A stretch of 64,000 nt of DNA, from positions 1-64,000 of the forward strand of contig JACRKZ010000093.1 of NCBI GenBank assembly GCA_016235455.1, in the 5' to 3' direction. This document shows positions 33,281 to 63,850 of the stretch, one piece after another. The position numbers were made by a program, and so were the translations under genes. The DNA comes from Armatimonadota bacterium (GTDB lineage Bacteria > Armatimonadota > UBA10988). A model generated the notes under the pieces. It was not told where the DNA came from. It saw only the letters and a program-made list of their open reading frames with translations, and made no database searches. Position 1 is the first letter of the stretch, and the number at the start of each line of letters is the position of its first letter.

Positions 33281-33287
33281 AGCCGCC

Positions 33288-34514: not shown

Positions 34515-35106
34515 GGCGACCTGCCGTGGCCCAGACCAACATTCAGGACCGCCACGCGTAGGCGTCGCGCCGCTGCGACAGTGCGTCGCTCTCATGGGGT
34601 GCAGCGCCTTACTGGGCCGCCCGGCGCTCCGTCACTCGCCAGACTGGCAGCCAGTCACCAACTGCGGTCCAGTTCCTCGTCCGCGGTCTGCGGGATAGTC
34701 AGCACGTGCTCCAGCCCGCCGGCCTCGGCAGGGCCCAGCCCCATGCGCCTGAGTACCAACGGCTCGATTGCCCCGCTGGCTTGCTGCTCCCTGAGCAGCG
34801 CTGGTCATGCTGCTCTCCGGGCTTCGCCTGCCGTTCATGCACTCGCACAGCCCCTGCACGCCACCGCCAACGACGCGCGCTGCGCTGGGATCGTCCATGC
34901 CGGCGCCGCCCACCCCGGCCGAACGGCGCAGATGGATGGAACCACGCCATGCGCCTCGTCTCCCTTGCTTCATCTGCTCACCGTGCGGGGCCAGCGCGCC
35001 TGCGCACCGACGCCGGTGCACCAGACTGACTGATGCCAGACAATCGCCGACGCCGATTGTGCGCGGGCGAAGCGGTCGCTGGCCTGTGTGCCAAGGAGAC
35101 CATGAT

Positions 35107-40618: not shown

Positions 40619-40619
40619 C

Positions 40620-42800: not shown

Positions 42801-44325
42801 GGGGTTGCGTCGCCGGCTGCCGGGTCTGGCGCTGTTCGGCGTGGTGATGTTGTGCTTCGTCTTCGGTACCGTCTTCGCCACGGGCGAGCGCCCCAACCAG
42901 GACGAGGGCTGGTACCTGAACGCGGCACGGCTGGTCATGGCCGGGCACACACCGTATGTCGATTTCGCCTACGTGCAGCCGCCCCTGCTGCCGTATGTCT
43001 ACGGCCTGCTCGGCGGGCATCACACCCTCGAGGCCGGCCGCGCGGTGAGCCTGTTGTTCGGCACGCTGACCGTGCTGCTGGTCGGGTTGGCCGCTTGGCG
43101 TGACGGCGCGCTGAGCGGCCTCGTCGCCGCCAGCCTGCTGGCCTTCTGCCCCTTCGCGCTGTCGCAACAGAGCATCGTCAAGACCTATGCGCTGACCAAT
43201 GCGCTGACCGCGCTGGCGCTGCTGCTGGCGCTGCGGGTGCCCGGGCGGCGCGGCCTGGTCGGCGCTTCGCTGGCCTTCGCCCTGGCGGCGTTGACCCGTA
43301 ACTCCGCCGCGGTGGTGCTGGTGGCCTGGTGGCTGTGGCTGGCCGTCGACCGTGAGCGGCGGCGCGACCTGCCGCTGGCCGTCGCCGCGTCGTGCGCGCC
43401 GCTGGTCCTGGCCTACCTGCCGTTGGGCCTGATGGACCCCGCGGCGCTGCGCTACAACCTGGTTGGCCACCATGCCGCGCAAAGCGCCGGCGGCGACCTG
43501 GGCCAGGTGCTCGTGGCAGCCATTGTCGTCGTGCGCCAGATGACCGCCGCGGCGCCGGCCATGGCCGCGCTCATCGCGGCTGGGCTGTGGCTGGAGCGGT
43601 CCACGGCCGACCGCGGGCCGCTCGATCTGGCAGCGCTGCTGTTTGGCCTGCTGGCGGCGGGCCATTTCGTTTCGGCGCATCCCTACCAGGAGTACCAGGT
43701 GCTCTGCCTGCCGGCTGGCGCGGTGCTGGCCGGGCTGTGCTGGGGGCGCATCACCGCGCGTTCGGCTGAGCGCGCCACGCTCCTGGCACTGCTGACGGCG
43801 GTGGTCGGACTGGTGCCGTTGCTGGCCATGGGGCCGACATTGTGGAAGCTGCCCGGTCTGGCCATGCCCGGTGGGATCCACGCTCCGCTACGCAAGGTCG
43901 CGGCCATCGTGCGCGCCAATGTGCCCGCCGGCCAGCCCGTGCTGACCTTCCAGAGCGACGTGGCGGTGGAAGCCGGCCGGCCGCTCACGCCCGGGCTGAC
44001 GCTCGCCTCGTTCAGTTTCGTCTCGTCAGACGACGAGGCCCGCCGGCTGCACCTGATGAGCCCCGGCTTGCTCCGCGCCGAACTCGAATCGCGTCGGCCG
44101 GCCGCGGTGGTGGTGTCGCCGGGCGATCTGGCGCGCATCTTCCGCGCGCGCTGGAAGGAAGACCGGTTGGTGCCGGCCGAGGGGCTGGACACCGATGCGC
44201 GCCGCCTGTATGAACCCATTGTCGAGGCGCTGGACACCAACTACCGGCTGGTCGGCAGTGTCGACGGCGTCGGCCAGTTCGGTGAGTCGTTCTGGGTACT
44301 GGCGCGGCGAGGAGAAGCACGGTGA
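42793..44325 (+). CDS. GT-C fold membrane glycosyltransferase (ArnT/PMT-like)
   Basis: NQDEGWY after TM1, PYVDFAYVQPP, multiple TMs, periplasmic C-terminal domain. Confidence 0.78.
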   Translation: MSEGLRRRLPGLALFGVVMLCFVFGTVFATGERPNQDEGWYLNAARLVMAGHTPYVDFAYVQPPLLPYVYGLLGGHHTLEAGRAVSLLFGTLTVLLVGLAAWRDGALSGLVAASLLAFCPFALSQQSIVKTYALTNALTALALLLALRVPGRRGLVGASLAFALAALTRNSAAVVLVAWWLWLAVDRERRRDLPLAVAASCAPLVLAYLPLGLMDPAALRYNLVGHHAAQSAGGDLGQVLVAAIVVVRQMTAAAPAMAALIAAGLWLERSTADRGPLDLAALLFGLLAAGHFVSAHPYQEYQVLCLPAGAVLAGLCWGRITARSAERATLLALLTAVVGLVPLLAMGPTLWKLPGLAMPGGIHAPLRKVAAIVRANVPAGQPVLTFQSDVAVEAGRPLTPGLTLASFSFVSSDDEARRLHLMSPGLLRAELESRRPAAVVVSPGDLARIFRARWKEDRLVPAEGLDTDARRLYEPIVEALDTNYRLVGSVDGVGQFGESFWVLARRGEAR

Positions 44326-45410
44326 AGCTGGCGCTGGTCCATGAATGGCTGACCAACATGGCGGGCAGTGAGCGCGTGCTGGGCGCCATGGCCGAGCTGT
44401 GGCCCGCCGCGCCGGTCTACACCAGCGTCTACGCGCCCGAGTCACTGCCGCCTGAGTTCGCGCCCGGCTCCATGGACGTGCGCTGCTCGTGGCTCCAGCA
44501 GGTGCCCGGCGCCAACCGCCACTGGCGCGCGCTGCTGCCGTTCATGCCCAGCGCGTTCGAGAGCTTTGACCTCAGCGGCTACGATACCGTCATCACCAAC
44601 TGCCATCAGTGCGCCAAGGGCGTGCTGACCCCGGTGCATACGCGGCACATCTGCTACTGCTACACGCCGATCCGCTATGCCTGGGAGATGCCGCACCGCT
44701 ATCTGGCCGAGGCCGGGCCGCTCGCACGCCTGCTGCTGCCGCCCGTGCTGCGGCGGCTGCGCGTCTGGGACTACGTTGCTGCCCAGCGGCCGGACCACTA
44801 CATCGCCATCTCGCGGTTCGTCGGTCGGCGCATCGAGAAGCACTACCGCCGCGCCGTGGATGCCGTCATCTACCCGCCGGTGGTCACCGCTGACTACGCG
44901 CCGGCAGCCACGCGCGAGGACTTCTACCTGGTGGTCTCGCGGCTGGTGGGCTACAAGCAGGTCGACCTGGCTGCCGCGGCGTTCACCGAGCTGGGCCTGC
45001 CGCTCAAGATCGTCGGCGTCGGCCCCGATGAGGCGCGCGTGCGCGCCGCCGCCGGGCCGACCGTCGAATTGCTGGGCTGGCGCGACGACGCCGCCGTGCG
45101 CGACCTCTACAGCCGCGCGCGCGGCTTGGTCTTCTGCGGCGTCGAGGATTTCGGTCTGACACCCGTGGAAGCTCAGGCCAGCGGCTGCCCGGTGGTCGCG
45201 TTGGGCCGCGGCGGCACGTTGGAGACCGTGGTCGAGGACGAAACCGGCCTGTTCTTCGCCGAGCCGACCGTCACCGCGCTGGCCGACGCCGTGCGGCGCT
45301 TTGCGGCGCGCGACTGGTCGGTCGAGGCCTGCCGAGCCAACGCGCGCCGCTTCGATGTCGCGCTGTTCAAGCAGCAGTTGGCCGACTTCGTGGCGGGCAC
45401 TGCTGGCTGA
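44322..45410 (+). CDS. Glycosyltransferase family 4
   Basis: ALVHEWL..GSERVL, CYTPIRYAW, SRLVGYK, EDFGLTPVEAQASG (ExxxxxxxE). Confidence 0.94.
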   Translation: MKLALVHEWLTNMAGSERVLGAMAELWPAAPVYTSVYAPESLPPEFAPGSMDVRCSWLQQVPGANRHWRALLPFMPSAFESFDLSGYDTVITNCHQCAKGVLTPVHTRHICYCYTPIRYAWEMPHRYLAEAGPLARLLLPPVLRRLRVWDYVAAQRPDHYIAISRFVGRRIEKHYRRAVDAVIYPPVVTADYAPAATREDFYLVVSRLVGYKQVDLAAAAFTELGLPLKIVGVGPDEARVRAAAGPTVELLGWRDDAAVRDLYSRARGLVFCGVEDFGLTPVEAQASGCPVVALGRGGTLETVVEDETGLFFAEPTVTALADAVRRFAARDWSVEACRANARRFDVALFKQQLADFVAGTAG

Positions 45411-45418: not shown

Positions 45419-46963
45419 CTACTGCTGCTCCACCCGCGGCAACTCGACATCGGTGATGGCGAACGGCAGGCTGCCGACCTTCGTGCCGGGGTCAATCAGG
45501 CCGACCAACATGCGCGGCACCTCCGCCGAGGCGCTGATGCTGTAGAGCACGCGCGCCACCACGCGCTTGTCGCCGTCGCGGCTCTGCTGCAGGTTGACCT
45601 GCGACATCTCCATGCGCCTCCGGCCAGACTTTGTCTCCAGTACGACCACGGGAACGAGTGGGTGACTGGCCGGGCTGCCCATGCCGCCCATGCCCGGCAT
45701 GCCCATACCGGGTATTCCGCCAGGCATGCCACCCGGCATCCCCATACCAGGCATGCCACCCGGCATCCCCATGCCCGGCACGCCACCGGGCATATCCATG
45801 CCGGGCGGCGGCCCTTGGGCCAGGATGGTCACTCGCGGCTCGTCTTGCGCGGCGGGCACAGCGCCGAGGCCCGGCGGGCCGGGCGGCAGGACGGGGCCCA
45901 TGCCGCCGCCGGGCATCCCCGGACCCATGCCGCCGGGCGGCATGCCCGGGCCCATGCCGCCGCCCGGCATGCCCGGGCCCATGCCGCCGCCCGGCATGCC
46001 CGGGCCCATGCCGCCGCGCATGTTTTGGCCGCGGCCGCCACCGTTGGCCTGCGTGGCGCGGATGAGCTTGGTGAGTGCGTCGGTGAGCGGCATGGAGATG
46101 CTGAGTTCGGCTGTCCAGGTCTTGGGTGTGCCCTCGTATTCGGCACAGTGGACCAACGTCACGTCGATGTCGTGCTCCGACTGTTGCTGGTTGTCCTGAG
46201 CCAGGTCGCCGAACTCGAAGATGACTTCCTGCGCCTCGGGCAGCACAGCCAGCGTGCCGGTCAGTTCGTCCAAGTGCTGCAGCGGCGCCTTGGGCAACTG
46301 GAAATCGAGGCTGAAGCTATCGCGGTACTGCGCGCCGCGCTGGATGGGCAGGTACTCGAGGCCCTGCGTGGCGCGGACCTTGGCGTCGAGCACGGTGCCG
46401 TCGAACTTGGCCCCTCCGGTGAGCCCAGCGCCGAGCAGCGTCCGCGACGCCAGTTCGCTGTCGGTCTCGAGTTGGAGCATCGTGGTCAGCGCCTGTCGGC
46501 CGACCGCCCGGCCGCCGATAGTGATGCTACTGGCATCTTCCACGGTGATGTTGGTCAGAGCCACGCGGTAGGCGCCGACTTTGACCGTCGGTCGCTCGGG
46601 TTCGTGCTGCTGCGGACCCATGCGCGAGCCGATCATCAGGCTGGTGCCCATGTTCTGCACCACCAGGCCCTGCTCGCGCAACATGGCCAGCACCGCGCGC
46701 AGCGACTGACCTTCGGCCTTCAGGCTGATCTTGGGGTCGACGCGGTCCAGCAACTCCTCGGGGATCGCATCGATGTTTCCGCCCGGCGCCATGGTGCCGA
46801 TAGCCACACCCGTCTGCGCGGCCAGCGCCGAGGCCACCGCACTCAATCGCGTGTCCATCGCGTTGATGGTCACCGGTGGGTCGATGACGCTCAGTGGTGC
46901 GGCCGGGGCGGCCGCCGTCATCGCCAGAGCGGCCAGGGCCGCCGCATACACGCGATTGGTCAT
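45419..46963 (-). CDS. Secreted protein, array paralog 5 (STN-like N-terminus; GMPG-rich)
   Basis: Signal peptide, PLSVIDPPVTIN, DPKISLKAEGQSLRAVL, C-terminal VGLIDPG..LPFAITDVELP; GGAGG RBS. Confidence 0.85.
   Translation of the reverse strand: MTNRVYAAALAALAMTAAAPAAPLSVIDPPVTINAMDTRLSAVASALAAQTGVAIGTMAPGGNIDAIPEELLDRVDPKISLKAEGQSLRAVLAMLREQGLVVQNMGTSLMIGSRMGPQQHEPERPTVKVGAYRVALTNITVEDASSITIGGRAVGRQALTTMLQLETDSELASRTLLGAGLTGGAKFDGTVLDAKVRATQGLEYLPIQRGAQYRDSFSLDFQLPKAPLQHLDELTGTLAVLPEAQEVIFEFGDLAQDNQQQSEHDIDVTLVHCAEYEGTPKTWTAELSISMPLTDALTKLIRATQANGGGRGQNMRGGMGPGMPGGGMGPGMPGGGMGPGMPPGGMGPGMPGGGMGPVLPPGPPGLGAVPAAQDEPRVTILAQGPPPGMDMPGGVPGMGMPGGMPGMGMPGGMPGGIPGMGMPGMGGMGSPASHPLVPVVVLETKSGRRRMEMSQVNLQQSRDGDKRVVARVLYSISASAEVPRMLVGLIDPGTKVGSLPFAITDVELPRVEQQ
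45894..46016. repeat. 27-bp coding tandem repeat, about 4.5 copies (GGMGPGMPG)
   Basis: Units starting at 45894, 45921, 45948, 45975, 46002; consensus GGGCCCATGCCGCCGCCCGGCATGCCC. Confidence 0.9.
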
Positions 46964-46965
46964 CC

Positions 46966-48420
46966 TTATCCTCCGTCGGGCGCCTCCTTGCCGGAAGCAC
47001 CCAGCACTGTCTCGTTTGGCCCCAGGGGCGCGGGCTCGCCCAGGAACACGTCGCCGAACCGCACCGTCTGGTAGTCCACCGCGCGGCCGAAGTCCACCAG
47101 GCCCACACGCAGCTTCGTCGGCTGCTCACGGATGCCCACGGCGCGGGCCACGTAGCGCAGCGTCAGGCGCGCCGTCGCCGGGTCAAGGCTGATCTCGCGC
47201 AGCCCGACCGCCATCGTGCGGCGCCCATGCTCGCCTTCCAGCAGCACCACCGGCGCCAGGGGGTCGGTGGCTGTGTCGACCCAGGCGCCTACTGGCACCA
47301 CCCGCCGCCGCGAGCCGTCGTTGGCGCGGCCCGCGAACGGCATCGGCCACATGCTGACGCTGTCCCATACGGAGTCGACCCCGCCAATGCCGGTTACACC
47401 CGGCGAGATGACAGTTTGCGGCAGGCTTGGCTGATCGGAGTCGATGGGCATCTGCAGCGCGCTCAGTCGCGGCCCGGCCGAGCCGGAGACCGCCACACGC
47501 GACAGCAGGTGCTGCAGCGGGCCGCTCATGGGACGCACCACGGTCAGCATGGCCTCGACCGCTTCCAGCCGGCGGTCATCGACCAGTCTGTGCAGGACTA
47601 CCGACGCGCCCGGCTGCTCGGCGCGCTGTTCGGGCATGCCGTACGGATCGAACGTGAACACGCGCTCCTCGGCATCGCGGCACCAGGCCACCAGCAACGT
47701 CTGGTAGCCGATGCGGGTCAAGGCCGCGCCCGACCACGGCACGACATACTCGAGCGTGCCATCGGCGCCCAACGGCTCGAACGGCCGCGTGGGCGGTCCA
47801 TAGCCCGTGGCCATGACGTCGCCGACGCGGAAGACGGACTCCACGCGTGCGCCAAGCAGCGCGCGCGACAGCAACTCCGTCTCGGCCCGCACCCGGTAGC
47901 GCAGCCGCGTGACGCGCCGGGTCAGGCTCTGAGCACCGCTCTCGAGTTCGCGTTCGGTAGTCGTGGCAGCACTGCTGAGCGTGACGCGATAGGGGTAGTC
48001 AGCTTCGGCAGCCGGCGCCAGATCGCCCAGCGTTGCGGCACCGCTGGCCGCTCCGCCGGAGATGGCGATGCTGTCGCCGCGCGGCTCGACATCGTAGCCC
48101 TGGCCGGCGAGCAGGTTGAGCACCGCGCGCAGGCCGACATCCTTGACCGACAATGACAGCCGGGGCACCAGATCGGCATCGCTGCCCTGCGCCGGGCCTG
48201 GCCGCCGGGTCCACGGCGAGTCGCCGCGGCCGACCATGCGGCCAAAGTCGAGCGCATCGGGTACGACCACACCGTAGCCAGTCTGCTCCTGGATCTCGGT
48301 CGCTAACCGGGTGAACGGCACCTCGTCCAGCGTGAAGGTCAGGCGTGGATCGAGCACGCTGTCGGCGGCTGACGCGACCGCCGGCAGCAGGCAGAGAAGT
48401 GAGCACAGCCATGTGCGCAT
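46966..48420 (-). CDS. Secreted protein, array paralog 4
   Basis: Signal peptide MRTWLCSLLCLLPAVASA, SVLDPRLTFTL, RLSLSVKDVGLRAVL, C-terminal VGLVDFG..VRFGDVFL. Confidence 0.83.
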   Translation of the reverse strand: MRTWLCSLLCLLPAVASAADSVLDPRLTFTLDEVPFTRLATEIQEQTGYGVVVPDALDFGRMVGRGDSPWTRRPGPAQGSDADLVPRLSLSVKDVGLRAVLNLLAGQGYDVEPRGDSIAISGGAASGAATLGDLAPAAEADYPYRVTLSSAATTTERELESGAQSLTRRVTRLRYRVRAETELLSRALLGARVESVFRVGDVMATGYGPPTRPFEPLGADGTLEYVVPWSGAALTRIGYQTLLVAWCRDAEERVFTFDPYGMPEQRAEQPGASVVLHRLVDDRRLEAVEAMLTVVRPMSGPLQHLLSRVAVSGSAGPRLSALQMPIDSDQPSLPQTVISPGVTGIGGVDSVWDSVSMWPMPFAGRANDGSRRRVVPVGAWVDTATDPLAPVVLLEGEHGRRTMAVGLREISLDPATARLTLRYVARAVGIREQPTKLRVGLVDFGRAVDYQTVRFGDVFLGEPAPLGPNETVLGASGKEAPDGG

Positions 48421-48527
48421 GGGCACCCCCGGATCGTGGCACGGTCGGGCCGCGGCGCGGGTGCCGAGGCTCACCGAGGGTCACCCATTCGACAGCCGAC
48501 CTGATCCTCCTCTGTGTCGACGACCGG

Positions 48528-50087
48528 CTAGCGCGCGTCGGCCGCCGGCAGGTCCACGGCCGTGAACGCGAAGCCGACATTGCTCGTGCGCTGGCCGTAG
48601 TCCACCAGCCCGATGAGGAGGCGCTGCACCGGCTCGGCCGGCGCGGGGCCCTGGGCGGTGCAAGTCACGACGATGCGGTCGCCCGGAGCGGCGGCGCCTG
48701 GCGCGCCACCGCCGCCGCGGCTCTGCTGGCGCAGCACCAGCGGATAGCGGCCCTTGGCGGTCTCCATCACGATCATCGGCGCCAGGCCGTTGATCAGACC
48801 GGATCCGACGAGGACCGAGTCGAACGCCGGCTGGACCAGGCCGCCGCCGGGCAGCCCGAGCACTGGCGGGTTGGCCGGCATGATCTGCACGCCGACGGGC
48901 GGCGGCGGCGGCGCGTCTGCTGGCGGGCCTTCGACCTGCCTCATCACGCCGTTCGGGTCCATCTCGAACCGCTGCGTGACGCCGTTGCGCGTAATGGTCA
49001 CGTTGCCCTGGCGCTGGACCTGCACGTTCGGCTGCGGCTGGCCCAACCCGCCGGGCAGGCCCGGCACGGCGACCGCCGGCGGGATGGCCGCCGGCGGCCC
49101 GATCTGGAGTTGGATAGGCGCATCGTGCAGCCGGAACGCCTCGGGACCCGCCATCCCGCCCATGCCCAGCCCGCGCATCGGTCGCCCCTGTTGCTCATTG
49201 GCCTCGGTCTTGGGGTAGGAGACGGTGACCTGGGCCTCGACGGGCAGTGGCTGGCCGACGGGGCTGAAGCCGCCTTGGGTCTGGCCGAAGCGCACCAGCG
49301 TGACGTCGATGTCTCCCTCGGTCTGTTGCTGGCCGGTCTTGTCCAGGTCGCCGAACTCGAGCGCGACCTCCTTGGCGTCGGGGTAGACGCGTAGCGAGCC
49401 GGTCAGCGAGTCGATGGTCGACACGGGCTTGATGGGCAGCGCGAAGATCAGGCTCAGGTTGTCGGTCAGCCCCACGCCCGGCAGCGGCAGCCAGCCGGTC
49501 TGGGTGCGGGGTGCCTGCGCGGCGAGTTCTGCGCCGTCCAGCTTGAGCTGGTAGTCGGCGCCATAGCCGATCAGCGCGCGACTGGCGACCTCCGTGTCGC
49601 AGTCCAGCGTCAGCTCGACGCGCGTCTGGCGGCGTGACGGCATGGGGCCACCGAAGCGGCGGTACTCGACGTTCTCGGTGGTCAGGCTCTGGAGCTGCAC
49701 GCGGTACGCGCCGACCTTGGCTTCCGGCCGTGGCTCCGCGGCTCGGGCGTTGGGCACACCGATGACCTGCACCTGCCCACCGACCATCTGCACCGTAACG
49801 CCCAGGGCCGTCAGTCGGCGCAGCACCTGCCGCAACGTCTCGTCCTTGACCGACAGGGAGACGTTGGGGTCGAGCCGGCGCCGATGCTCCTCGGGCATGT
49901 TGCCCCATTGGACGCGGGCCATCGGCGAGGCGACCCCCACACCCGACCCGCGCGACAGCGTGTCGAGCACCTGGCTGAACGGGACTTCGCGCAGGTCGAA
50001 GGTGAGACGCGGATCGAGTACGCTGAGCGGCGCCGCGTGCGCGCGCAGAGCAATCCCCAAAAGGCAGAGGGCCAGGCAACGTCCCAT
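48528..50087 (-). CDS. Secreted protein, array paralog 3 (Pro/Gln-rich insert)
   Basis: Signal peptide, PLSVLDPRLTFDL, DPNVSLSVKDETLRQVL, C-terminal IGLVDYG..VGFAFTAVDLP. Confidence 0.85.
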   Translation of the reverse strand: MGRCLALCLLGIALRAHAAPLSVLDPRLTFDLREVPFSQVLDTLSRGSGVGVASPMARVQWGNMPEEHRRRLDPNVSLSVKDETLRQVLRRLTALGVTVQMVGGQVQVIGVPNARAAEPRPEAKVGAYRVQLQSLTTENVEYRRFGGPMPSRRQTRVELTLDCDTEVASRALIGYGADYQLKLDGAELAAQAPRTQTGWLPLPGVGLTDNLSLIFALPIKPVSTIDSLTGSLRVYPDAKEVALEFGDLDKTGQQQTEGDIDVTLVRFGQTQGGFSPVGQPLPVEAQVTVSYPKTEANEQQGRPMRGLGMGGMAGPEAFRLHDAPIQLQIGPPAAIPPAVAVPGLPGGLGQPQPNVQVQRQGNVTITRNGVTQRFEMDPNGVMRQVEGPPADAPPPPPVGVQIMPANPPVLGLPGGGLVQPAFDSVLVGSGLINGLAPMIVMETAKGRYPLVLRQQSRGGGGAPGAAAPGDRIVVTCTAQGPAPAEPVQRLLIGLVDYGQRTSNVGFAFTAVDLPAADAR

Positions 50088-50113
50088 GGATGACTCCCGG
50101 TGACCGTTGCACT

Positions 50114-50149
50114 GGCCCTCTGTCGAGAGCCGGCTCTCTTGCGAGAGCC
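50114..50149 (-). other. Two abutting 7-bp hairpins with GNNA tetraloops in the paralog 2/3 spacer
   Basis: Minus strand GGCTCTC-GCAA-GAGAGCC immediately followed by GGCTCTC-GACA-GAGGGCC. Confidence 0.7.
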
Positions 50150-50154
50150 AGGCG

Positions 50155-51726
50155 CTACTGGAGCGGTACGTTCGGCAGAGCGAACGGCACGTTGGCCGTC
50201 TTGTCGCCCGGGTCGATCACACCGACCAGAACGGACTTCGCCTCGGCGGCGGCACCCGTCAGCGGCACGCGCATGGTCACTGTGAGAGTGTTACCCGCGA
50301 ACCGCACCGTGCGTTCACACGACTTGGGGTCGATGCCGATGCGCTTGCCCGGCGCCGTCTCCACGGCCACGGCCTGCAGCAGCCAGCGCGCCACGGCCGC
50401 CATGTCCAGCCGCACCGGCTGGTCGCCGATGAAGGCCATGCCGTCGGCGCCAAAGCCGCCACGACCACCGAAGCCACCAAAGCCACCGAACCCGCCGGGC
50501 CCGCCGCCACCACCTTGGCGACCTTGCCGGCCGGGGTCAGGCTGACCGGGTTGGCCAGGCTGACCGGGCTGACCGGGCGCCTGGGCGAACTGCACGCCGC
50601 CGTCGGCCGGCGTGGCCAGCGCGAACCGCAGGCCCGGCTCAGCCTGAGCCTGACCGCCAGCGGCCGGGGCTCGTCCCGGGGCACCGGGCGCACCCGGCGC
50701 GGCACCGGGCGCGCCCGGGCCGCCACCAGGACCGCCAGGACCACCTGGGCCACCACCGCGACCGCCGCCGAAGCCGCCGCCACCGAACATGCCGGCACCG
50801 GTCTCGATGCGCAGCGGGCCGTTGGCATTGGCGAACACGCCGGACAGACGCTGGGCCATCTCAGGACCGAGCGTGCGCTTGAGCGTCAGGTTGACCGTCT
50901 TCACGTTGCCGGCGGTCTGCACGCCAACCAAGGTCATGTCGATGCCGGCATCCGTCTGCGTCTGGTTGGCCGCGGCCAGATCGTCGAAGACGAAGCTGCG
51001 CTCGACGCAGTCGGTCAGGACGATGAGCTGGCCACTGACCGCGTAGGAGGTCAGGGGTGTGGTCGGCAACTGGTAGGCCAGATCGAACAGGCCGTTGCGC
51101 GGCGCGATGGGCTGCGGCGTGTTATTACCGCCACGGCCGAAGCCGCGCTGGCGCATCTCCGCCGGCTGCCCGTTGATGGCCGACTGCACGGTACCATCGA
51201 TGCCCATGACCGCCAGCAGCGCCGAGGGCGAGGTGGGGGCCACGGCCAACTCGAAGGTCAGGCCGGAGAACGAGTTCGGGTCATTGGGGCCGAACCCGGT
51301 GGTCAGCATGTTCACCGCGCGGTAGTTGTTGAGCACCAGCGCCCACTTGTCGGCCTTGGCCACGGGCCGCGTATCGACCAGCGGCGCATTGGCCGGCGCC
51401 GCCACGGTCGACGGCGTGAGCTCCCAGGACATCTTCGCCGCCTGGTAGCTGAGCGTGCCGCCGACCTGCACGGCCAGCGCCGCCAGCACCTGCGACAGCG
51501 GGTTGCCCGCCGCGATGATGGTCACGGTCGTCGTGGCCGGCTTGGCGTCGGCCGGCAGTTCGACCTTCACGCCGCCCGCGGCCGACAACTGCGTCAGTGC
51601 CTCGGCTAGCGCGACGCCCTTGAGATCCAGCGTGATCGGCGGGTCGTAGACCGAAGTGGCGGCCGCCCACAGCGGGCTCGTCGCCAGCGCCAACACGCAC
51701 ACCAGTGTGAAGAGCTTGCGCGTCAT
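50155..51726 (-). CDS. Secreted protein, array paralog 2 (GGPG/PGQ/GGF-rich insert)
   Basis: Signal peptide, SVYDPPITLDL, VTIIAAGNPLSQVL, C-terminal VGVIDPG..VPFALPNVPL; ATGA overlap with paralog 1. Confidence 0.85.
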   Translation of the reverse strand: MTRKLFTLVCVLALATSPLWAAATSVYDPPITLDLKGVALAEALTQLSAAGGVKVELPADAKPATTTVTIIAAGNPLSQVLAALAVQVGGTLSYQAAKMSWELTPSTVAAPANAPLVDTRPVAKADKWALVLNNYRAVNMLTTGFGPNDPNSFSGLTFELAVAPTSPSALLAVMGIDGTVQSAINGQPAEMRQRGFGRGGNNTPQPIAPRNGLFDLAYQLPTTPLTSYAVSGQLIVLTDCVERSFVFDDLAAANQTQTDAGIDMTLVGVQTAGNVKTVNLTLKRTLGPEMAQRLSGVFANANGPLRIETGAGMFGGGGFGGGRGGGPGGPGGPGGGPGAPGAAPGAPGAPGRAPAAGGQAQAEPGLRFALATPADGGVQFAQAPGQPGQPGQPGQPDPGRQGRQGGGGGPGGFGGFGGFGGRGGFGADGMAFIGDQPVRLDMAAVARWLLQAVAVETAPGKRIGIDPKSCERTVRFAGNTLTVTMRVPLTGAAAEAKSVLVGVIDPGDKTANVPFALPNVPLQ

Positions 51727-53300
51727 TGCGCACCTCCTTGGCCGCCCTGGCCACCTTCAGCACCACCGCGGCCGCCGCGGCCGCCACGGCCACCACGGCC
51801 ACCACCGCCGTCACCACCAGCTCCGCCAGCGCCAGCGCCCGGCTGACCGGGCTGACCGGGCTGACCGGGCTGGCCGGGCTGGCCTCCAGGGCCGCCAAAG
51901 CCGCCCGGCCCGCCAGCGTTGTTGGGTCGAGGCGCGGGGATGGCGATGTCATTGACGATGACGATCTGGTCCTTGGCGGACACACCGGGGTCGAGCACGG
52001 AGACCACCAGGCGCTGCGCGCCCTGCACGGCGGTCGGCCAGGTGGCGACCAGATGCGTGGTCAGCGTATCGCCCTTGAGCGTGAACTCGCGCTGCTGCGA
52101 CGAGGTGCGGGCATAGGCGAAGCCGGCCGGCGCCTTGGAGAAGGCTACCACGGGCACAATCCAGGCCGGAAGGGTGCGCATGCCGCCCATACCACCCATG
52201 CCGCCGCGTCCGCCGCCGCCGTTGGTGTCCAGCACCGAGCCGACGTCGATCTTGCCGTCCGCCGCGACGGGCAGCGCCTTGAGCTGCTCAACCGCCGTGG
52301 GACCCAGCTTGGTGGTGACGGTCAGATCGGCTGTGGCGGGCTGGTCGCCGGCCGCGGCGGTGAAACTGTTGAGCGTCACTTCCACGTTGCCGGCGGCCTG
52401 CTTGGCCCCAGCCTGCGCGGGGTCGAGCGTGACCAGGCGCTCGGCGATCTGGTCATAGAGCTTGAGGCTCAGGTTGACCTGGCGCACGGCCTTGATTTCC
52501 GGCGCGCCGGCCGGCAGCTCGAACGGCAGATCGAAGTTGCCGTTGGCCGGATTGGTGGCCAGCAGTTGGCCCGACAAGCCGGCGACCGGCTTGAAGGTGA
52601 CCGTGGCTTCGGGCAGCACGGTGGCTTCAACCGACTCGACCGAAATGCCGGCGACCTTGGCGTCGGCCAGGGCCGTCGCGCCGTCCACAGCGACCTCCAG
52701 GGTCAGCGTGGCGTTGGGCTGGTGCGCCGGACGCGGCCCGAAGAAGTGCTCCGTCGTGCGGGCGTAGCGCAGATTGTTGACCATGATGCCCAGGTCACCC
52801 ACCACGCGAAACGGCGGCTGGGACTGGTTGCGGCCCATGGCCGGCAGCACGTAGTAGGTGCCGCCCACGCGCTGCACGCGCTGGTTGTACTGGCGCGCCA
52901 GTACGTCCAGCACGTAGCCCAGCGGAAAGCCGTTGGCCTGGGTGGTGATCTGCGGATCGAGCATGTCCAGGAACCGGTTGCCGCCCTGGCCACCGGCGCC
53001 CGGCTGACCGGGCTGGCCACCGGCACCGGGCTGGCCCGGCTGGCCCGGCTGACCACCAGGCATGCGACCGGCCATCATGCGCACCGCGGCCTGGTCGAAG
53101 TTGTAACCGGTCTGCGCGCCGATGAACTTGAGCACCTCGGACAGCCGCTGCCCCGACGCATTGATGGTCACCAGCGGCTCGACCAGGCTGATCTGGGCCG
53201 GGGCCTGCTGGGCAGGGCTCGGCCCAGCGGCCAGCGCTACGCTCAGCGCGGGCGCGGCCCAGAGCCAGCCGCGGCTCCGGCACCGAAAACGTGTACCCAT
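51723..53300 (-). CDS. Secreted protein, array paralog 1 (PGQ and RGG repeats)
   Basis: Signal peptide, SLVEPLVTINA, DPQITTQANGFPLGYVL, VSVLDPG..VNDIAIP; GAGGGAG RBS favours ATG 53300. Confidence 0.85.
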   Translation of the reverse strand: MGTRFRCRSRGWLWAAPALSVALAAGPSPAQQAPAQISLVEPLVTINASGQRLSEVLKFIGAQTGYNFDQAAVRMMAGRMPGGQPGQPGQPGAGGQPGQPGAGGQGGNRFLDMLDPQITTQANGFPLGYVLDVLARQYNQRVQRVGGTYYVLPAMGRNQSQPPFRVVGDLGIMVNNLRYARTTEHFFGPRPAHQPNATLTLEVAVDGATALADAKVAGISVESVEATVLPEATVTFKPVAGLSGQLLATNPANGNFDLPFELPAGAPEIKAVRQVNLSLKLYDQIAERLVTLDPAQAGAKQAAGNVEVTLNSFTAAAGDQPATADLTVTTKLGPTAVEQLKALPVAADGKIDVGSVLDTNGGGGRGGMGGMGGMRTLPAWIVPVVAFSKAPAGFAYARTSSQQREFTLKGDTLTTHLVATWPTAVQGAQRLVVSVLDPGVSAKDQIVIVNDIAIPAPRPNNAGGPGGFGGPGGQPGQPGQPGQPGQPGAGAGGAGGDGGGGRGGRGGRGGRGGAEGGQGGQGGAQ

Positions 53301-53330
53301 GTTGGTCATCTCCCTCAGACGATGGGGCCA

Positions 53331-53357
53331 TAGACGCTGGCCCAGACGGAAGGTTCA
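53331..53357 (-). promoter_or_regulatory. Candidate ECF-sigma promoter of the five-gene array
   Basis: Minus strand tGAACCT-16 bp-TCTA (cGTCTA), similar to sigmaE-type GAACTT-N16-TCTAA. Confidence 0.55.
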
Positions 53358-53461
53358 CTCAAACGTCACAGTGCCCATGGATCTTGTCGGGCAGGGCGTC
53401 AGACCAGCGGATCCGGGCCATTTCGCGGGCCCCACGGCCATGTGCTGACCCGTCCCGCCTC

Positions 53462-53490
53462 TTGCCGTGCCGGCGGTCCAGTGATATCGT
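53462..53490 (+). promoter_or_regulatory. Sigma70-type promoter of the small ORF
   Basis: TTGCCG-17 bp-TATCGT with an extended -10 TG. Confidence 0.5.
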
Positions 53491-53518
53491 GAGACTAGCT
53501 GGATCTGGAGGGCGAGAT

Positions 53519-53752
53519 ATGCTGATCGTTAAGGTCACCGAGCGCGAAGACGGCACGATCGTCGCGGAGACCCAACGGCAGGTGTTGGCGCAGTTCCAGG
53601 GGCAGACCAGGCAGGATGTGGTTGCCTATCTGGAGCACAAAGCGCGCTCATGCGGGGAAGACCTGCGAATTGTCGAGAGCTTCGACGACTTCGACCCGAA
53701 CGGGCGGCTCACGGACCGTGACTTCCGGCACATGATGAAGCGACACTTCTGA
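53519..53752 (+). CDS. Small hypothetical protein (77 aa)
   Basis: GGAGGG RBS, ATG, natural-looking composition MLIVKVTEREDGTIVAETQ..., promoter upstream and hairpin downstream. Confidence 0.75.
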   Translation: MLIVKVTEREDGTIVAETQRQVLAQFQGQTRQDVVAYLEHKARSCGEDLRIVESFDDFDPNGRLTDRDFRHMMKRHF

Positions 53753-53786
53753 GACGAAGCGACGGCTCAGGTCAGGCGAAAAGGGT

Positions 53787-53822
53787 CGAGCGGCCAGCCC
53801 CCGTACGGTGACCGGCCGCTCG
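53787..53822. terminator. Hairpin between convergent small ORF and csp
   Basis: CGAGCGGCC...GGCCGCTCG inverted repeat. Confidence 0.55.
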
Positions 53823-53834
53823 TGGGTAGAATGC

Positions 53835-54044
53835 TCAGGATTCCTTGGGCTGTACGGCTACGGCTCGTGGGCCGCGCCCGTCATCGTTGATCTCGTACTC
53901 AACCTCTTGGCCCTCAAACAGCGTCTTGTAGCCTGCTGAGTCGATCACCGAGTAGTGAACGAACACGTCCTGGCCACCGTTGTCCTGTTCGATGAAGCCG
54001 TAACCCTTTTGATCGTTGAACCATTTGACCTTGCCGACCGGCAT
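53835..54044 (-). CDS. csp: Cold-shock protein (CspA family)
   Basis: [15 protein letters not shown] (RNP1), DVFVHYS (RNP2); GGAG RBS. Confidence 0.97.
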
Positions 54045-54140
54045 GGGACACTCCAAATCCGGCTGCTCTCCGCCGCGTTCACGACCTCCCCAGTACTAGT
54101 CACGTCTGGTTGGCGGTCGGTTCATCCGGATCCAACCCCC

Positions 54141-54170
54141 ATTGTAATCAACTTCGGTCCCGCTCTTCAA
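54141..54170 (-). promoter_or_regulatory. Candidate csp promoter giving a 5' UTR of about 90 nt
   Basis: Minus strand TTGAAG-18 bp-TACAAT. Confidence 0.5.
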
Positions 54171-54219
54171 GATGCTCCCGGGGGTACGAGTCCGCGTTAC
54201 TCAACCGTTTCACAACACT

Positions 54220-54966
54220 CTACAAGCCGGCGCAGCACGGGCACCAGGGGTCTTTGGGCACGTTCAGGGCGAATGCGTCGCCTGCCATGGTATCGAATAG
54301 CATGACACGGCCCAAAAGCGGCGCCACGCGGGGATGTTGCGGCAGCAGCAGCTTGAGTGTCTCGGCGGCGCAGCAGCAACCCACCTGACCCGCCAGCGGG
54401 CCCAGCACGCCTTGTGTGGCGACCTCGGCGGGTGGCGCCGGGAACCGGCAGCGATAGCACGGCCCGCCCAACGCGGGCGCATAGACCGCCACCTGCCCCT
54501 CGCCCTGGTAGACGCTGCCATCGATCCACGGCCGGCCAAGGCGCACGCAGGCGTCGTTGACCACATAGCGCAGGGCGTAGCTGTCGCCCGCGGCAACGAC
54601 GGCATCGTACTCGGCCAGCACCAACTCGGCGTTGTCGGCCGTGAGCGCGATGCTCAGGCCGCGCACCTCGACCTCGGGGTTGGCCTGCGTCAGCCGGGTG
54701 GCGGCTCGCTCGGTCTTGAGCAGGCCCAGGTCAGCCGGCCCGAAGAGGATCTGGCGGGGCAGGTCGGCGGGCGCCACGCGGTCGTGGTCGATCAGTGCCA
54801 GTCGGCCGACGCCCGCGGCGGCCAGATACAGCGCGCACGGCCCACCCACGCCGCCCAGCCCGACCACCGCCACCGACGCATCACGCCACGCCTGCTGCCC
54901 GGCCTGGCCGACCTCGGGCAGCATGATCTGGCGCGCGTAGCGTTCGTGGTCCAGTGCGCTGAGCAT
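54220..54966 (-). CDS. HesA/MoeB/ThiF family adenylyltransferase
   Basis: RYARQIML, VGLGGVG, LAAAGVG, CYRC and CPCC zinc motifs; no rhodanese domain. Confidence 0.92.
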   Translation of the reverse strand: MLSALDHERYARQIMLPEVGQAGQQAWRDASVAVVGLGGVGGPCALYLAAAGVGRLALIDHDRVAPADLPRQILFGPADLGLLKTERAATRLTQANPEVEVRGLSIALTADNAELVLAEYDAVVAAGDSYALRYVVNDACVRLGRPWIDGSVYQGEGQVAVYAPALGGPCYRCRFPAPPAEVATQGVLGPLAGQVGCCCAAETLKLLLPQHPRVAPLLGRVMLFDTMAGDAFALNVPKDPWCPCCAGL

Positions 54967-54977: not shown

Positions 54978-55817
54978 TCACCTGTGCCGCTCGGCCGCGC
55001 CGCGCAGCCTGTCGAGCACCTCGTCGTCGTCGGGCACGCGACCGGGCACCTGGCCCAGGCGTACGCCGGGCTTGGTGGCGCCGTGGAAATCCGAGCCGAC
55101 GGTGATGGCCAGCCGCCAGCGCGTGGCCAGGTCGCGGTACAGCCGACGTTGGCGCGGCGTGTGCTGCGGGTAGTACACCTCCAGCCCGTCGAGTCCTCTG
55201 GCCACCCAGCGGCTCAGCGTGTCGGCCAGATCGGCCGGGCTAAGCCGCGTCTGGCAGGGATGCGCCAACACCGCCGCGCCGCCGGCCGCGTGGACCAGTT
55301 CGATGGCGTCGCCGGGCGACAGGTCCTCGCGCGGCACATACAGCGGCGAATCGTCCGCCAGGTAGCGCTCGAAGGCCTGGTAGATGCTGCTCACCGCGCC
55401 CAACTCCACCATGGCCTGAGCCATGTGCGGGCGGCCGATCTGCTCGCCGCCGGCCAGTCGGTCGAGCTGTTCCATCGTAACGGCGAAGCCGGCGGCGTTG
55501 AGCCGCTCGACCATGGTCACGTTGCGCACGCGGCGCGCGGCCTGCAGTTGGGCCAGCACGGTCCGCAGCCCAGCGTGGTGCGGGTCGATGTGGTAGCCCA
55601 GCAGGTGCAGGTTGCCCCGCGCCCAGGTCAGGCTGAGCTCCACGCCGACGATGATCTCGACATCCTGGCGATCGTCGGGCAGCCGGTCGTAGGCGTCGAC
55701 GTTGTCGTGGTCGGTGATGGCCAGCGCGCGCAGGCCCGCGGCGGCGGCGGCGGCCACCAGTTCCGCCGGCGTCAGCGTGCCGTCGGAGCAGACGGTATGG
55801 CTATGCAGATCGATCAT
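54978..55817 (-). CDS. PHP domain protein (YciV/TrpH-like)
   Basis: IDLHSHTVCSDG, AITDHD, GVELS, HLLGY, GRPH, LAHP, GSDFHG; ATGA overlap with murC. Confidence 0.94.
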   Translation of the reverse strand: MIDLHSHTVCSDGTLTPAELVAAAAAAGLRALAITDHDNVDAYDRLPDDRQDVEIIVGVELSLTWARGNLHLLGYHIDPHHAGLRTVLAQLQAARRVRNVTMVERLNAAGFAVTMEQLDRLAGGEQIGRPHMAQAMVELGAVSSIYQAFERYLADDSPLYVPREDLSPGDAIELVHAAGGAAVLAHPCQTRLSPADLADTLSRWVARGLDGLEVYYPQHTPRQRRLYRDLATRWRLAITVGSDFHGATKPGVRLGQVPGRVPDDDEVLDRLRGAAERHR

Positions 55818-60100: not shown

Positions 60101-60371
60101 CGTCCAATGGCAGGAGGCCCTGGCCCTGGTCGTCCCAGGCCACGACGGTGCCGTTCATGCCGTTGATAACGCGCGGGTTGTCCAGGTGGAAGCGGCCCTG
60201 CTCATCGGCTGTGGTCTCATGCCGGTCTCCGCACCAGCAGTCCTCCCACGCCAGCCGCGCGCGCGCCGCCGGCTGACCATCGGGCCGCAGTACACGCCCG
60301 TTCAACTCGTCGGCCCAAGCGCCGGCCGTAACCAACAGCACACCCAGCCACGCCCACCACCACCTGATCAT
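57143..60371 (-). CDS. Large secreted protein with carboxypeptidase-regulatory-like repeats and helical C-terminus; 3' end lost (ORF runs out of frame into murC to 56232)
   Basis: Signal peptide; many GRV.D..G.P.AGA.V / TD..GR(Y/F) repeats; collinear with 60469-63759 up to LARWLICPSLDRW. Confidence 0.82.
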
Positions 60372-63759: not shown

Positions 63760-63850
63760 CCCGTATGTCCCCTTCGCATCGCTTGGCACCGATACCCGCC
63801 GAGACCCGCGATTGTGACAGACCGGCCAATCTACTCCACCGCCACCCCCG

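Follow-up and report, generated by a model that had tools for sequence, protein, structure and literature searches.

A family of Sec-exported proteins that is found mainly in Armatimonadota, begins with an N0 domain and carries no membrane anchor has so far gone undescribed, and it is a real family. Five of its members (g1 to g5) are encoded side by side in the window, meaning the whole stretch of 64,000 nucleotides analysed here. According to the leading, though unproven, reading, they constitute a hetero-oligomeric envelope scaffold, i.e. they are periplasmic or envelope structural or adaptor subunits working together, which we put forward tentatively, as a good possibility short of a probability. 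Within this picture, we infer export to the periplasm, co-transcription and physical association, as well as any link to secretins.

Organization of the gene array

The array and its upstream region comprise the following features, with coordinates referring to the window:

51723-53309, minus strand: g1, 528 aa, signal peptide by eye
50155-51726, minus strand: g2, 523 aa, start overlapping the g1 stop (ATGA)
48528-50087, minus strand: g3, 519 aa
46966-48474, minus strand: g4, 502 aa from GTG, 484 aa from the ATG at 48420
45419-46963, minus strand: g5, 514 aa, 2 bases past g4
53310-53520, minus strand: upstream non-coding stretch, where the array promoter would be expected

The original prediction of five consecutive, co-oriented genes with signal peptides holds for the open reading frames at 45419-53309, which encode 484-528 aa, and the ORF coordinates equally reproduce the claimed spacing from g1 to g5 (a 4-base ATGA overlap and gaps of 67, 107 and 2 bases). 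Coupling is tight in the pairs g1/g2 and g4/g5. With the GTG start of g4, the g3/g4 gap amounts to 53 instead of 107 bases; translation probably begins at the ATG at 48420, giving 484 aa. The form of g4 in a public collection (P0009) has 484 aa and resides, together with P0005, on a contig of 73,224 bases. Signal peptides and cleavage sites were assigned by eye rather than by a predictor, and g3 is probably cleaved after AHA. GC3 of g1-g5 is 0.85-0.90 in the chosen frames, while GC content and GC3 of the array are similar to the remainder of the window. A contig of 11,199 bases spans 45988-54300; it comes from run X2, which may be the window's own source. The g4/g5 junction is bridged in X3, a further sample from the study of this possible source. 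A second study contributed X4 and X5, whose contigs cross g1/g2, g2/g3 and g3/g4 at ~99% identity. Within 53310-53520 no match to the sigma-70 consensus was found, the sole promoter-like match being located at 54170-54141 ahead of a cold-shock gene, and a promoter and terminator scan inside the array gave nothing above shuffled expectation. Presumably, g1-g5 form one operon-like array and are co-transcribed; a search of public runs listed no RNA run carrying them.

Paralogy of the five proteins was confirmed by pairwise comparison, in which seven of the ten pairs reached BLASTP E<=1e-3 (five-sequence set), ranging from g3-g5 as best pair (E 3.6e-35) to the non-significant pair g1-g4 (E 9.2). 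All five also match the full-length profile A5, which was built from ~360-aa members of other genomes and whose 47 rows include g2-g5 and leave out g1 (g3 1e-71, g5 1.3e-65, g4 7e-60, g2 3.9e-57, g1 2.6e-29). Both N-terminal patterns described before, S[VL]x[DE]Px[VLI]T and a second block, are present in five of five proteins; judged from the models, they correspond to the two halves of a single N0 domain, between which a variable loop is inserted, and not to two modules. Other motifs stood only in part. The middle segment QQQxExDIDVTL, assigned to all but g4, is exact in g3 and g5 only, weaker in g2 and g1, and missing from g4, the most diverged of the five copies. Likewise, the C-terminal motif claimed for all five is shared by g2-g5, but g1 carries a variant (SVLDPG...IAIP) followed by a 67-aa Gly-rich tail; the strand pattern of the family at this end is ...F-x-x-h-P-L-P.

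The N0 domain and the two β-sandwiches

The structure models suggest that each protein is composed of a signal peptide, an N0 (STN-fold) domain, a DUF4352-like β-sandwich and an FN3-like β-sandwich, in this order, and that in the lineage of the window a long Gly/Pro(/Met)-rich loop, which is disordered, emerges from the second sandwich. Alignment of two models indicates that the low-complexity stretch would be a loop inside this second sandwich instead of an inter-domain spacer. The corresponding features, as predicted, are:

g1, minus strand: Gly/Pro-rich insert, in a loop of the N0 domain
g1 residues 355-383, minus strand: short Gly/Met loop
g1 residues 462-528 (window 51726-51926), minus strand: C-terminal Gly-rich tail of 67 aa with RGG repeats
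g2 residues 300-446 (window 50389-50829), minus strand: disordered Gly/Ala/Pro-rich loop of 147 aa
g3 residues about 20-115 (window 49743-50030), minus strand: N0 domain
g3 residues 119-300 plus 435-515, minus strand: β-sandwich region
g3 residues 302-432 (window 48792-49184), minus strand: disordered Pro/Gly-rich loop
g4 residues 326-402, minus strand: loop of 77 aa
g5 residues 302-433 (window 45665-46060), minus strand: Gly/Pro/Met-rich loop of 132 aa (G49 P28 M22)

The N-terminal likeness to STN/N0 domains noticed at the outset is borne out by a sub-threshold Pfam match, by a profile match to the N0 domain of PilQ and by structure comparison. Pfam STN (PF07660) scores 26.2 bits in g3, i.e. 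below its gathering cutoff of 28.4, and has no match at E<=1 in g1, g2, g4 and g5; hence, the five proteins are to be regarded as sub-threshold STN relatives. In homologues, 30.2 bits (G006, locus L025) and 23.4 bits (G005) are obtained. Profile A5 matches PilQ N0 (4ar0) with E 9.2e-5 over profile positions 21-101, and the solved relatives found by sequence profile are secretin N0 domains only (PilQ with E 9.2e-5 and 1.2e-3, HofQ with 0.18). On the structural side, the AF2 model of g3 (pLDDT 69.2, pTM 0.65) matches N0/STN domains over residues 21-116 with Z 7-9.2. The better model of P0036, a 364-aa family member (pLDDT 89.5, pTM 0.86), does so over residues 19-104 with Z 8-10.6 and 72-80 residues aligned at an rmsd of 1.9-2.7 Å; its matches include the FecR-type 4m0h, PupR, PilQ, PupA, GspD, EscC, FecA and DotD, and the alignment covers 80 of the 82 residues of PupA 2a02. 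As in other members of the N0/STN fold superfamily, the region is a compact domain of ~80 residues that consists of two β-α-β halves and can be superposed on N0/STN domains of solved structure. Foldseek gives PilQ N0 4ar0 as top match for g3 with a probability of 1.00, global matches against the PDB being weak (TM up to 0.19).

After N0, the g3 and P0036 models match 3fbq (Z 10-10.7) and YcdA 4r4g (Z 7.8-9.6), both of which we take to be DUF4352 members. A DUF4352 protein in BFVD matches at E 4.8e-6 with a TM of only 0.26-0.32, DUF4352 clusters of the Atlas reach TM 0.33-0.45, and Pfam DUF4352 (PF11611) has no match at E<=1 in g1-g5 and none at E<=0.01 in 30 family members. The expected absence of a secretin or barrel domain from g1-g5 was verified by the Pfam scan, in which neither PF00263 nor PF03958 was found, and Plug and TonB_dep_Rec gave no match. 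As positive comparison, a true secretin of the host genome, scanned likewise, reaches 137 bits for PF00263, and its N-terminus matches the family profile. Neither a catalytic domain nor a membrane segment or anchor besides the signal peptide was detected in g1-g5. Copper binding, suggested by the 22 Met residues of the g5 loop and by matches to the PCuAC and CrdA sandwiches at Z ~7.5, was dropped as a family property because the loops of g2, g3 and g4 are not Met-rich.

Family distribution and genomic neighbourhood

The family had not been recognised in the original prediction, and indeed no covering family exists in Pfam (no match above cutoff in g1-g5), NCBIfam (chance-level matches only, E 0.03-0.16, 12-13 bits vs cutoffs of 180-395), PADLOC (0 matches) or PHROGs (0 matches for g1-g5 or P0036). 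Its members are annotated in the sources as 'hypothetical protein' only, and among the text portions returned by a full-text literature search there was no paper describing such a family. The broader, unnamed family of exported proteins of ~360 aa counts 1019 representatives at E<=1e-3, 108 at E<=1e-10 and 23 at E<=1e-30. Among 151 Armatimonadota genomes, 22 were found to contain full-length members, with diverged copies very often arranged in tandem and at times fused as two units. Such arrays of 2-7 copies recur in many genomes (G051, G133, G026, G011, G039, G003, G004, G002, G084 and others) with a within-array identity of 23-38% (54% in one pair), so that homologues are not scattered singletons. 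A word-based homologue search, swamped by low-complexity words, yielded one true relative for g5 and seven for profile A6. Related-locus searches gave no relative in genome contigs with P0005 alone, only its own record (an Armatimonadota MAG) with P0036, and a low-complexity match only in metagenome contigs with A10.

Two-unit proteins make up 5 of the 16 long family proteins examined. In G001, which belongs to the same genus, an 803-aa ORF starts with a g1-like unit and continues with a g2-like one, as in the gene order of the window, the g2-like unit lacking a signal peptide. The branches of both halves are long (2.2-2.3), and the first half joins the g1 clade at only 94/84, which was weighed against the hetero-oligomer. 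Each of g1, g2, g4 and g5 has its own orthologue clade with support from 99/96 to 100/100: g1 groups with P0015 and P0018 (99/96), g2 with P0024, P0027, P0025, P0028 and the second half of the G001 fusion (100/99), while g4 is sister to P0019 (100/100) and g5 to P0006 (64% identity, 100/100). Only g3 is without such a clade and stands beside the pair of g4 and P0019 (92/85). By their sequences, g1-g5 appear to be anciently diverged paralogs. Moreover, longest contigs of equal length were noted for three pairs of metagenomic orthologues, two of them each pairing one g1-like with one g2-like protein (14,607 and 7,000) and the third being P0014 and P0016 (14,062); this is a hint, short of proof, that the proteins of each pair are encoded together.

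Regarding the neighbourhood, neither the window nor the 11 other array loci revealed a partner gene that is conserved. Genes for secretins, pili, T2SS or transducers are absent next to all of these arrays, and the secretin link is therefore drawn from domain homology only. Surface or binding protein families whose members act independently typically show tandem arrays of diverged exported paralogs, too; together with the lack of a conserved partner gene, this speaks against a hetero-oligomer. At 39218-45410, a cluster of glycosyltransferase genes runs convergently towards the array of the window, and arrays elsewhere have genes for polysaccharide deacetylase, GH125 and arabinofuranosidase nearby. 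The window further holds an OEP-HlyD-MacB efflux set, which was counted in favour of a diderm host.

Possible function and relation to known systems

Assuming a hetero-oligomer, the N0 domain would serve as docking module, which might dock on the β-sandwich of a neighbouring subunit, by analogy with secretin N0 and GspC or PilP, or else on the ring formed by N0 in the secretins of the same cell. The old, diverged paralogs with orthologues of their own lend indirect support to such an assembly, and the fusion of g1-like and g2-like units in G001 as well as the two-unit fusions elsewhere fit cooperating subunits. A five-part complex cannot be general, because the long-linker subfamily is single-copy in four of the five other genomes of the same taxonomic family. 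A more specific version, according to which the arrays of Armatimonadota, and possibly of Planctomycetota, build a so far unseen periplasmic ring, stack or fibre through head-to-tail N0-to-β-sandwich contacts, with the Gly/Pro/Met-rich loops as a disordered envelope mesh, appears unlikely; if true, it would mean that the docking principle of N0 can be put to use independently of secretins.

Alternatively, the five proteins may act independently as adhesin- or ligand-binding-like surface or extracellular proteins, their sandwiches binding substrates or glycans, the Gly/Pro-rich stretch acting as spacer, N0 tethering them to the envelope and the arrays reflecting diversified specificity. We regard this as doubtful, yet as an option of some weight. 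It would suit the two Ig-like sandwiches, which have weak Foldseek matches to SdrG and SdrD N2-N3 (E 6e-4, TM only 0.12), the occurrence of DUF4352-like domains in lipoproteins and phage tail-associated proteins, the 2-7 diverged copies per array in numbers differing among genomes, the in-frame length differences of the low-complexity parts between strains, and the closeness of glycan-active genes to several arrays, the cluster in the window included. However, all solved N0/STN matches are periplasmic or intra-machine contact modules, and a surface-anchor signal is lacking (no lipobox by eye; no Pfam match of SLH, sortase or PEP-CTERM type). If the model alignment is correct, the low-complexity stretch is no spacer either. 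In addition, the paralogs are old and four of them keep their own orthologues, unlike fast-turnover copies, and recurrent fusion of adjacent units suits cooperating parts better.

The original prediction had also considered stand-alone STN modules of a cell-surface-signalling-like pathway, which would bind a transducer STN or a FecR-type anti-sigma factor and modulate transcription. This is not supported and seems improbable: although top structure matches include 4m0h (Z 10.6), PupR (10.2), PupA (9.1) and FecA (8.8), and a zf-HC2 protein (anti-sigma-type zinc finger; L059:5445-6572) lies directly beside the array at one of the 11 other loci, no ECF sigma, FecR or TonB-dependent transducer or receptor gene is present at the window array or at 10 of these 11 loci. 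Besides, the relatives retrieved by sequence profile are PilQ, as the nearest one, and HofQ instead of a transducer STN, and no membrane segment exists beyond the signal peptide. Even less credible, to the point of being hardly worth entertaining, are domesticated or resident parts of a phage or contractile-injection-system baseplate. Their hub proteins do contain N0-like domains matching at Z 6.5-8.6 (Mu gp44 1wru, 8kea, 3cdd, diffocin 8v3w), but all five proteins bear signal peptides, PHROGs gave no match, no phage gene was found near the window array, and base composition is that of the rest of the window. Furthermore, the chromosomal position is conserved within taxonomic families, with the order pfkB - members - CHAT/TPR in three genomes.

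N0/STN domains are universal docking modules of trans-envelope machines, being used in secretins, in TonB-dependent signalling, in type IV secretion and in phage baseplates. In the present case, such a module heads a large, wholly unannotated exported family of a poorly studied phylum, whose diverged copies are found repeatedly in arrays and fusions, away from the genes of any known machine. Should the copies assemble, as the hetero-oligomeric scaffold implies, Armatimonadota would possess a new envelope structure; otherwise, a sizeable unnamed architecture still deserves a family model, which would provide a consistent description for hundreds of 'hypothetical proteins'. Concrete candidate pairs for an interaction, g1-g2 foremost, also follow from the finding.

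Compared with known systems, the family shares with secretins (PilQ, GspD, EscC/InvG, HofQ) the N0 fold over ~75-80 residues (Z 8-9.8, rmsd 2-3 Å), as is also reflected by the profile match to PilQ 4ar0 and by the secretins of the host genome, which match the N-terminal family profile. In contrast to secretins, g1-g5 have two β-sandwiches in place of the ring-building domains N1-N3 and the PF00263 pore, and the family proteins are soluble, ~360-530 aa long, multi-copy and arrayed. The STN domains of TonB-dependent transducers and of FecR/PupR show the same fold (6ovm 10.2, 2a02 9.1 and 1zzv 8.8 besides 4m0h), in agreement with the Pfam STN score that is sub-threshold in g3 and above threshold in one homologue, but the family lacks plug and barrel, cytoplasmic anti-sigma domain and membrane helix. 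In FecR, the sandwich comes first and the STN domain second; the family has the reversed order, with N0 first and sandwiches after. DotD of the Dot/Icm system and the Xanthomonas VirB7, which carries an N0 domain (PMC3093366), are exported non-pore proteins as well, whose N0 makes contacts inside an envelope machine. DotD matches in structure with Z 8.8, and Pfam DotD faintly matches P0036. Unlike these lipoproteins of type IV secretion clusters, the family has no lipobox by eye and no secretion-system neighbours, and it possesses two additional β-sandwich domains. DUF4352 proteins (B. anthracis 3fbq, B. subtilis YcdA 4r4g, YjhA 3cfu) are the best structure matches after N0 and have no N0 domain; as little can be said of what they do themselves, the resemblance speaks for a fold and does not extend to function. 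Finally, GspC(HR)-GspD(N0) and PilP-PilQ(N0), in which a β-sandwich docks on N0 in the periplasm, may serve as a working analogy only. The GspC-GspD contact is the subject of PMC3169554, and 3oss chain D matches the N0 part with Z 8.5, while no sandwich likeness to the HR domain was found among the best 50 matches of each structure search (g3, P0036). Unlike both of these pairs, the family carries N0 and sandwich in one polypeptide.

The five-gene array and its assembly

The array consists of five neighbouring minus-strand genes, g1 to g5, in a window with a G+C content of about 70%:

51723-53309, minus strand: g1, long ORF of 528 aa
50155-51726, minus strand: g2, long ORF of 523 aa
48528-50087, minus strand: g3, long ORF of 519 aa
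46966-48474, minus strand: g4, 502 aa from a GTG start
45419-46963, minus strand: g5, long ORF of 514 aa

Read from an ATG at 48420, g4 encodes 484 aa, the form also seen in the public-collection protein P0009 (73,224-base contig). From g1 to g5, the junctions comprise a 4-base ATGA overlap followed by gaps of 67, 107 (53 with the GTG start of g4) and 2 bases, in exact agreement with the spacing of the original prediction. In the five reading frames, GC3 amounts to 0.85-0.90 versus a GC2 of 0.50-0.56, and other genes of the window behave alike.

The assembly of the array is sound. A contig of 11,199 bases from sequencing run X2, possibly the window's own source, spans 45988-54300, while g1/g2, g2/g3 and g3/g4 are bridged at about 99% identity by short contigs of runs X4 and X5 from a second study, and g4/g5 by run X3, another sample of the possible source's study. 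Length differences between strains occur at 45965 (-3), 50725 (+9), 50761 (+3), 51841 (-9) and 52998/52999 (+3); all are multiples of three and lie inside low-complexity parts, which is the pattern expected of coding repeats. Gly/Pro(/Met)-rich coding stretches varying by 3 or 9 bases are located at 45665-46060, 50389-50829, 51726-51926 and about 52990-53060, and public contigs break at the g5 repeat (45916-45988).

All five translations start with a hydrophobic, signal-peptide-like segment (both the signal peptides and their cleavage positions were assigned by visual inspection), after which the predicted motif S-(V/L)-x-(D/E)-P-x-(V/L/I)-T is present in each. The proposed paralogy was borne out by BLASTP at E<=1e-3 in 7 of 10 pairs, with g3-g5 being closest (E 3.6e-35). 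The pairs g1-g3 (0.006), g2-g4 (0.015) and g1-g4 (9.2) fell short of this threshold, and g1 matched the broad 47-member family profile A5, built without g1, with an E value of 2.6e-29. A QQ...DIDVTLV segment, ascribed to g1, g2, g3 and g5, matches exactly in g3 and g5 only; g2 and g1 have degenerate versions, and g4 lacks it. Likewise, the C-terminal motif said to end all five proteins does not end g1, where it is followed by a Gly-rich tail of 67 residues containing 36 Gly and four RGG.

Domain architecture

In g1-g5, the only Pfam match was to STN, in g3, and at 26.2 bits it stayed below the cutoff of 28.4. Neither a catalytic domain nor a secretin pore, plug, barrel or membrane helix turned up, consistent with the original observation that no secretin or beta-barrel domain is visible; searches of NCBIfam, PADLOC and PHROGs yielded no meaningful match. 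By structure, the N-terminal domain is an N0/STN fold, the domain found at the N-terminus of secretins and TonB-dependent transducers, and by Pfam a sub-threshold relative thereof. The AlphaFold2 model of g3 (10-row alignment, pLDDT 69.2, pTM 0.65) is confident at residues 20-115, 120-300 and 435-515 and disordered at 305-370 and 391-431; the model of P0036, a compact member of 364 aa, is much better (71-row alignment, pLDDT 89.5, pTM 0.86). The first 80-95 residues of either model can be superposed on N0/STN domains of known structure.

Matches of the P0036 model to solved structures
FecR-type 4m0h: Z 10.6
PupR 6ovm: Z 10.2
PilQ 4av2: Z 9.8
PupA 2a02: Z 9.1 (80 of 82 PupA residues aligned)
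GspD 3ezj: Z 8.9
EscC 3gr5: Z 8.9
FecA 1zzv: Z 8.8
DotD 6x62: Z 8.8
Phage baseplate hubs: Z about 7-8.6

When compared with sequences of solved structures, the 47-member profile matched the N0 domain of PilQ (4ar0, E 9.2e-5), PilQ 9sh1 (1.2e-3) and HofQ (0.18), and no transducer. The N-terminal STN/N0 resemblance originally noticed is thus supported by structure superposition, the PilQ N0 profile match and the sub-threshold Pfam hit. From superposition and profile matches it follows that the two conserved blocks described previously together make up one N0 domain, each block being a beta-alpha-beta half of it, and that in the window lineage a variable loop (Gly/Pro-rich in g1) pulls them apart.

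Residues 103-360 of P0036 match 3fbq (Z 10.7) and YcdA 4r4g (Z 7.8), and for an inner segment, about 224-345, the matches are to FN3/cytokine-receptor-like sandwiches and to YajI, with Z of about 7.5. The best viral-library match is a DUF4352 protein (E 4.8e-6), and DUF4352 clusters of the ESM Atlas were matched at TM 0.33-0.45. Judging from the aligned ranges, the region after N0 probably forms two sandwiches, with the final strand going back to the first of them. The low-complexity stretches (residues 355-383 in g1, 300-446 in g2, 302-432 in g3, 326-402 in g4 and 302-433 in g5) lie, according to the A5 alignment and two secondary-structure strings, within the second sandwich, between two of its strands; each would hence be a very large loop and not a linker between domains.

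Family distribution and age of the copies

Out of 1.84 billion entries, profile A4 (first ~300 residues) retrieved 1019 cluster representatives at E<=1e-3; the number fell to 108 at 1e-10 and to 23 at 1e-30, the latter being the long-linker subfamily, which carries the long low-complexity loop and takes in g1-g5. Most other members lack this loop; they are exported, about 355-400 aa long, and share the N0 domain, the sandwiches and the C-terminal ...F-x-x-(I/V)-P-L-P strand. A minority of A4 matches are multi-STN and secretin-like proteins aligned in their N0 part only. A scan of 30 members revealed no Pfam family other than STN-type, with matches sub-threshold in single-unit members and above cutoff in multi-STN proteins. 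As the sole name in the sources is 'hypothetical protein' (Armatimonadota MAGs), the family is indeed unrecognised. The nearest unnamed ESM Atlas clusters are labelled 'commonest Planctomycetota', a label taken from the minority of members with known phylum.

The narrow profile A1 matched in 15 of 41 related genomes, including all five other genomes of the window's taxonomic family and the single one from its order; most carry just one long-type copy. With A5 at E<=1e-8, 112 of 151 genomes of the phylum match, many through the N0 part of ~650-aa secretin-like ORFs only; among the 150 matches listed, those covering at least 250 of 367 profile positions stem from at least 22 genomes in 8 taxonomic families. 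The window's own genome holds seven full-length members, g1-g5 and a tandem pair on contig C122.

The genome search for arrays suggested by the original prediction, performed with A5, found full-length members recurrently, and very often, adjacent to one another: four on G051:C2, about seven on G133:C8, and pairs in G026 and G011 (three places each), on G051:C1 and in G039, G003, G004, G002, G084, G086 and G063. P0036 and P0176 are likewise encoded by neighbouring genes. Identity within arrays is 23-38% (54% in one pair), so the copies are old. In an IQ-TREE phylogeny of 35 rows and 484 columns, with six compact members serving as the outgroup, g1 groups with P0015 and P0018 (support 99/96), g2 with P0024, P0027, P0025 and P0028 (100/99), g4 with P0019 (100/100) and g5 with P0006 (100/100). 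For g3 alone the tree shows no separate orthologue clade; it is placed beside g4 and P0019 (92/85). The single long-type genes of genomes G003, G004 and G005 form a separate clade.

In G001, a genome of the same genus, one ORF of 803 aa (L022, G001:C175, 8710-11121, plus strand) contains two complete units in the g1-g2 order of the window. Its first half joins the g1 clade (94/84), its second falls inside the g2 clade (100/99), and both sit on long branches, which limits confidence in the placement. A signal peptide is absent from the second unit, which identifies the ORF as a genuine fusion and not as a read-through of two separate genes. Two units are present in 5 of 16 longer family proteins (P0062, P0065, P0068, P0136 and P0083, the last a fragment of the G001 fusion). 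Four others of the 16 (P0045, P0056, P0072 and P0085, 620-645 aa) have at their C-terminus an extension of about 250 aa that is conserved among them, ends in the motif ...YYWWVSALDA.G... and has no Pfam match, a further unnamed domain.

Gene context and possible roles

The surroundings of the array comprise the following features:

9582-15298: OEP-HlyD-MacB-ABC efflux set
24526-29686: complete rRNA operon (16S, two spacer tRNAs, 23S, 5S), the cause of the window's low-GC stretch
26176-26249 and 26260-26332: spacer tRNAs of this operon
31143-32813, plus strand: B12-binding radical SAM enzyme
33006-34514, plus strand: radical SAM/SPASM enzyme following it, possibly forming a peptide-maturation pair with it
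34807-36435, plus strand; 56232-60371 and 60469-63858, minus strand: three large proteins with repeated CarboxypepD_reg domains
39218-40618: Bac_transf, glycan-synthesis cluster
40620-42800: YfhO-like (weak match), same cluster, which also holds a PMT_2-like gene
44322-45410: GT4, same cluster
53835-54044, minus strand: cold-shock gene (69 aa) upstream of the array

The downstream glycan-synthesis cluster converges on the array, and beyond the cold-shock gene ThiF, PHP and Mur-ligase genes follow on the array's strand. Because of an overlap with the Mur-ligase gene (55814-57142), the 1379-aa CarboxypepD_reg ORF must have its true start further inside. A putative small ORF, read by eye, lies at about 53520-53760 (plus strand) between cold-shock gene and array.

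Homologue neighbourhoods (6 related and 11 array loci) have nothing in common across taxonomic families. Gene order is conserved only locally: three genomes of the window's family have the arrangement pfkB - members - CHAT/TPR, serS lies beside the G133 and G084 arrays, and acyl-CoA synthetase or DUF455 beside arrays in family f7. The first arrangement includes the compact C122 pair (L065, G000:C122, 4989-6098 and 6116-7228), whose flanks recur at G004:C3 and G002:C91. An FG-GAP gene directly follows the single copy in G003 and G004 (FG-GAP-repeat protein of about 310 aa; L023, 1843-2763, minus strand, and L020, 10802-11743, plus strand, respectively) and is not present beside the window array.

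From gene content, namely the window's efflux set and a true secretin in its genome (L068, G000:C18, 3180-5108, minus strand; PF00263, 137 bits), the organism is diderm. The N-terminus of this secretin matches the family profile, and it is preceded by a 296-aa STN protein (5207-6097, minus strand; 30.2 bits, above threshold) and two unannotated genes, possibly a secretin accessory cluster.

The proteins g1-g5 are exported-looking, have no enzyme domain and present a docking domain first, then Ig-like sandwiches; family genes occur in groups of closely spaced copies that are old and diverged and sometimes fused; and N0-type domains make protein contacts inside trans-envelope machines in every solved case. 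We tentatively favour, at somewhat less than even confidence, that the copies cooperate as a hetero-oligomeric scaffold in periplasm or envelope. N0 would contact the sandwich of a neighbouring copy, in the way that secretin N0 binds the sandwich of GspC or PilP, or alternatively the N0 ring of the cell's own secretins. Related literature, as far as the consulted portions go, covers GspC-GspD (PMC3169554), GspB/OutB (PMC9239104), PupR (PMC7186176) and a Xanthomonas VirB7-N0 protein (PMC3093366).

The main rival, rather unlikely yet the strongest of the alternatives, takes the same exported sandwich proteins as independent surface or ligand-binding proteins, their arrays reflecting diversified specificity. 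That they are cell-surface-signalling modules appears improbable: the N0 models do superpose on PupR, PupA and FecA, and a zf-HC2 protein adjoins the array at one locus (L059), but this reading has little support. Neither in the window nor at the examined homologue loci do family genes adjoin a gene for a secretin, pilus, T2SS, TonB-dependent receptor or ECF sigma factor. A phage origin of the parts, recalling the baseplate-hub matches, likewise finds little support and is most improbable.

The array offers testable pairs; the folds are familiar, with no function yet in sight. The family itself is real, sizeable and unannotated, and the consulted portions of the literature contained no description of such a family. 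Its members g1-g5 are neither secretins, transducers nor FecR-type regulators, nor by sequence DUF4352 proteins, but combine a known docking fold with a new, unnamed architecture and a striking array-forming habit.
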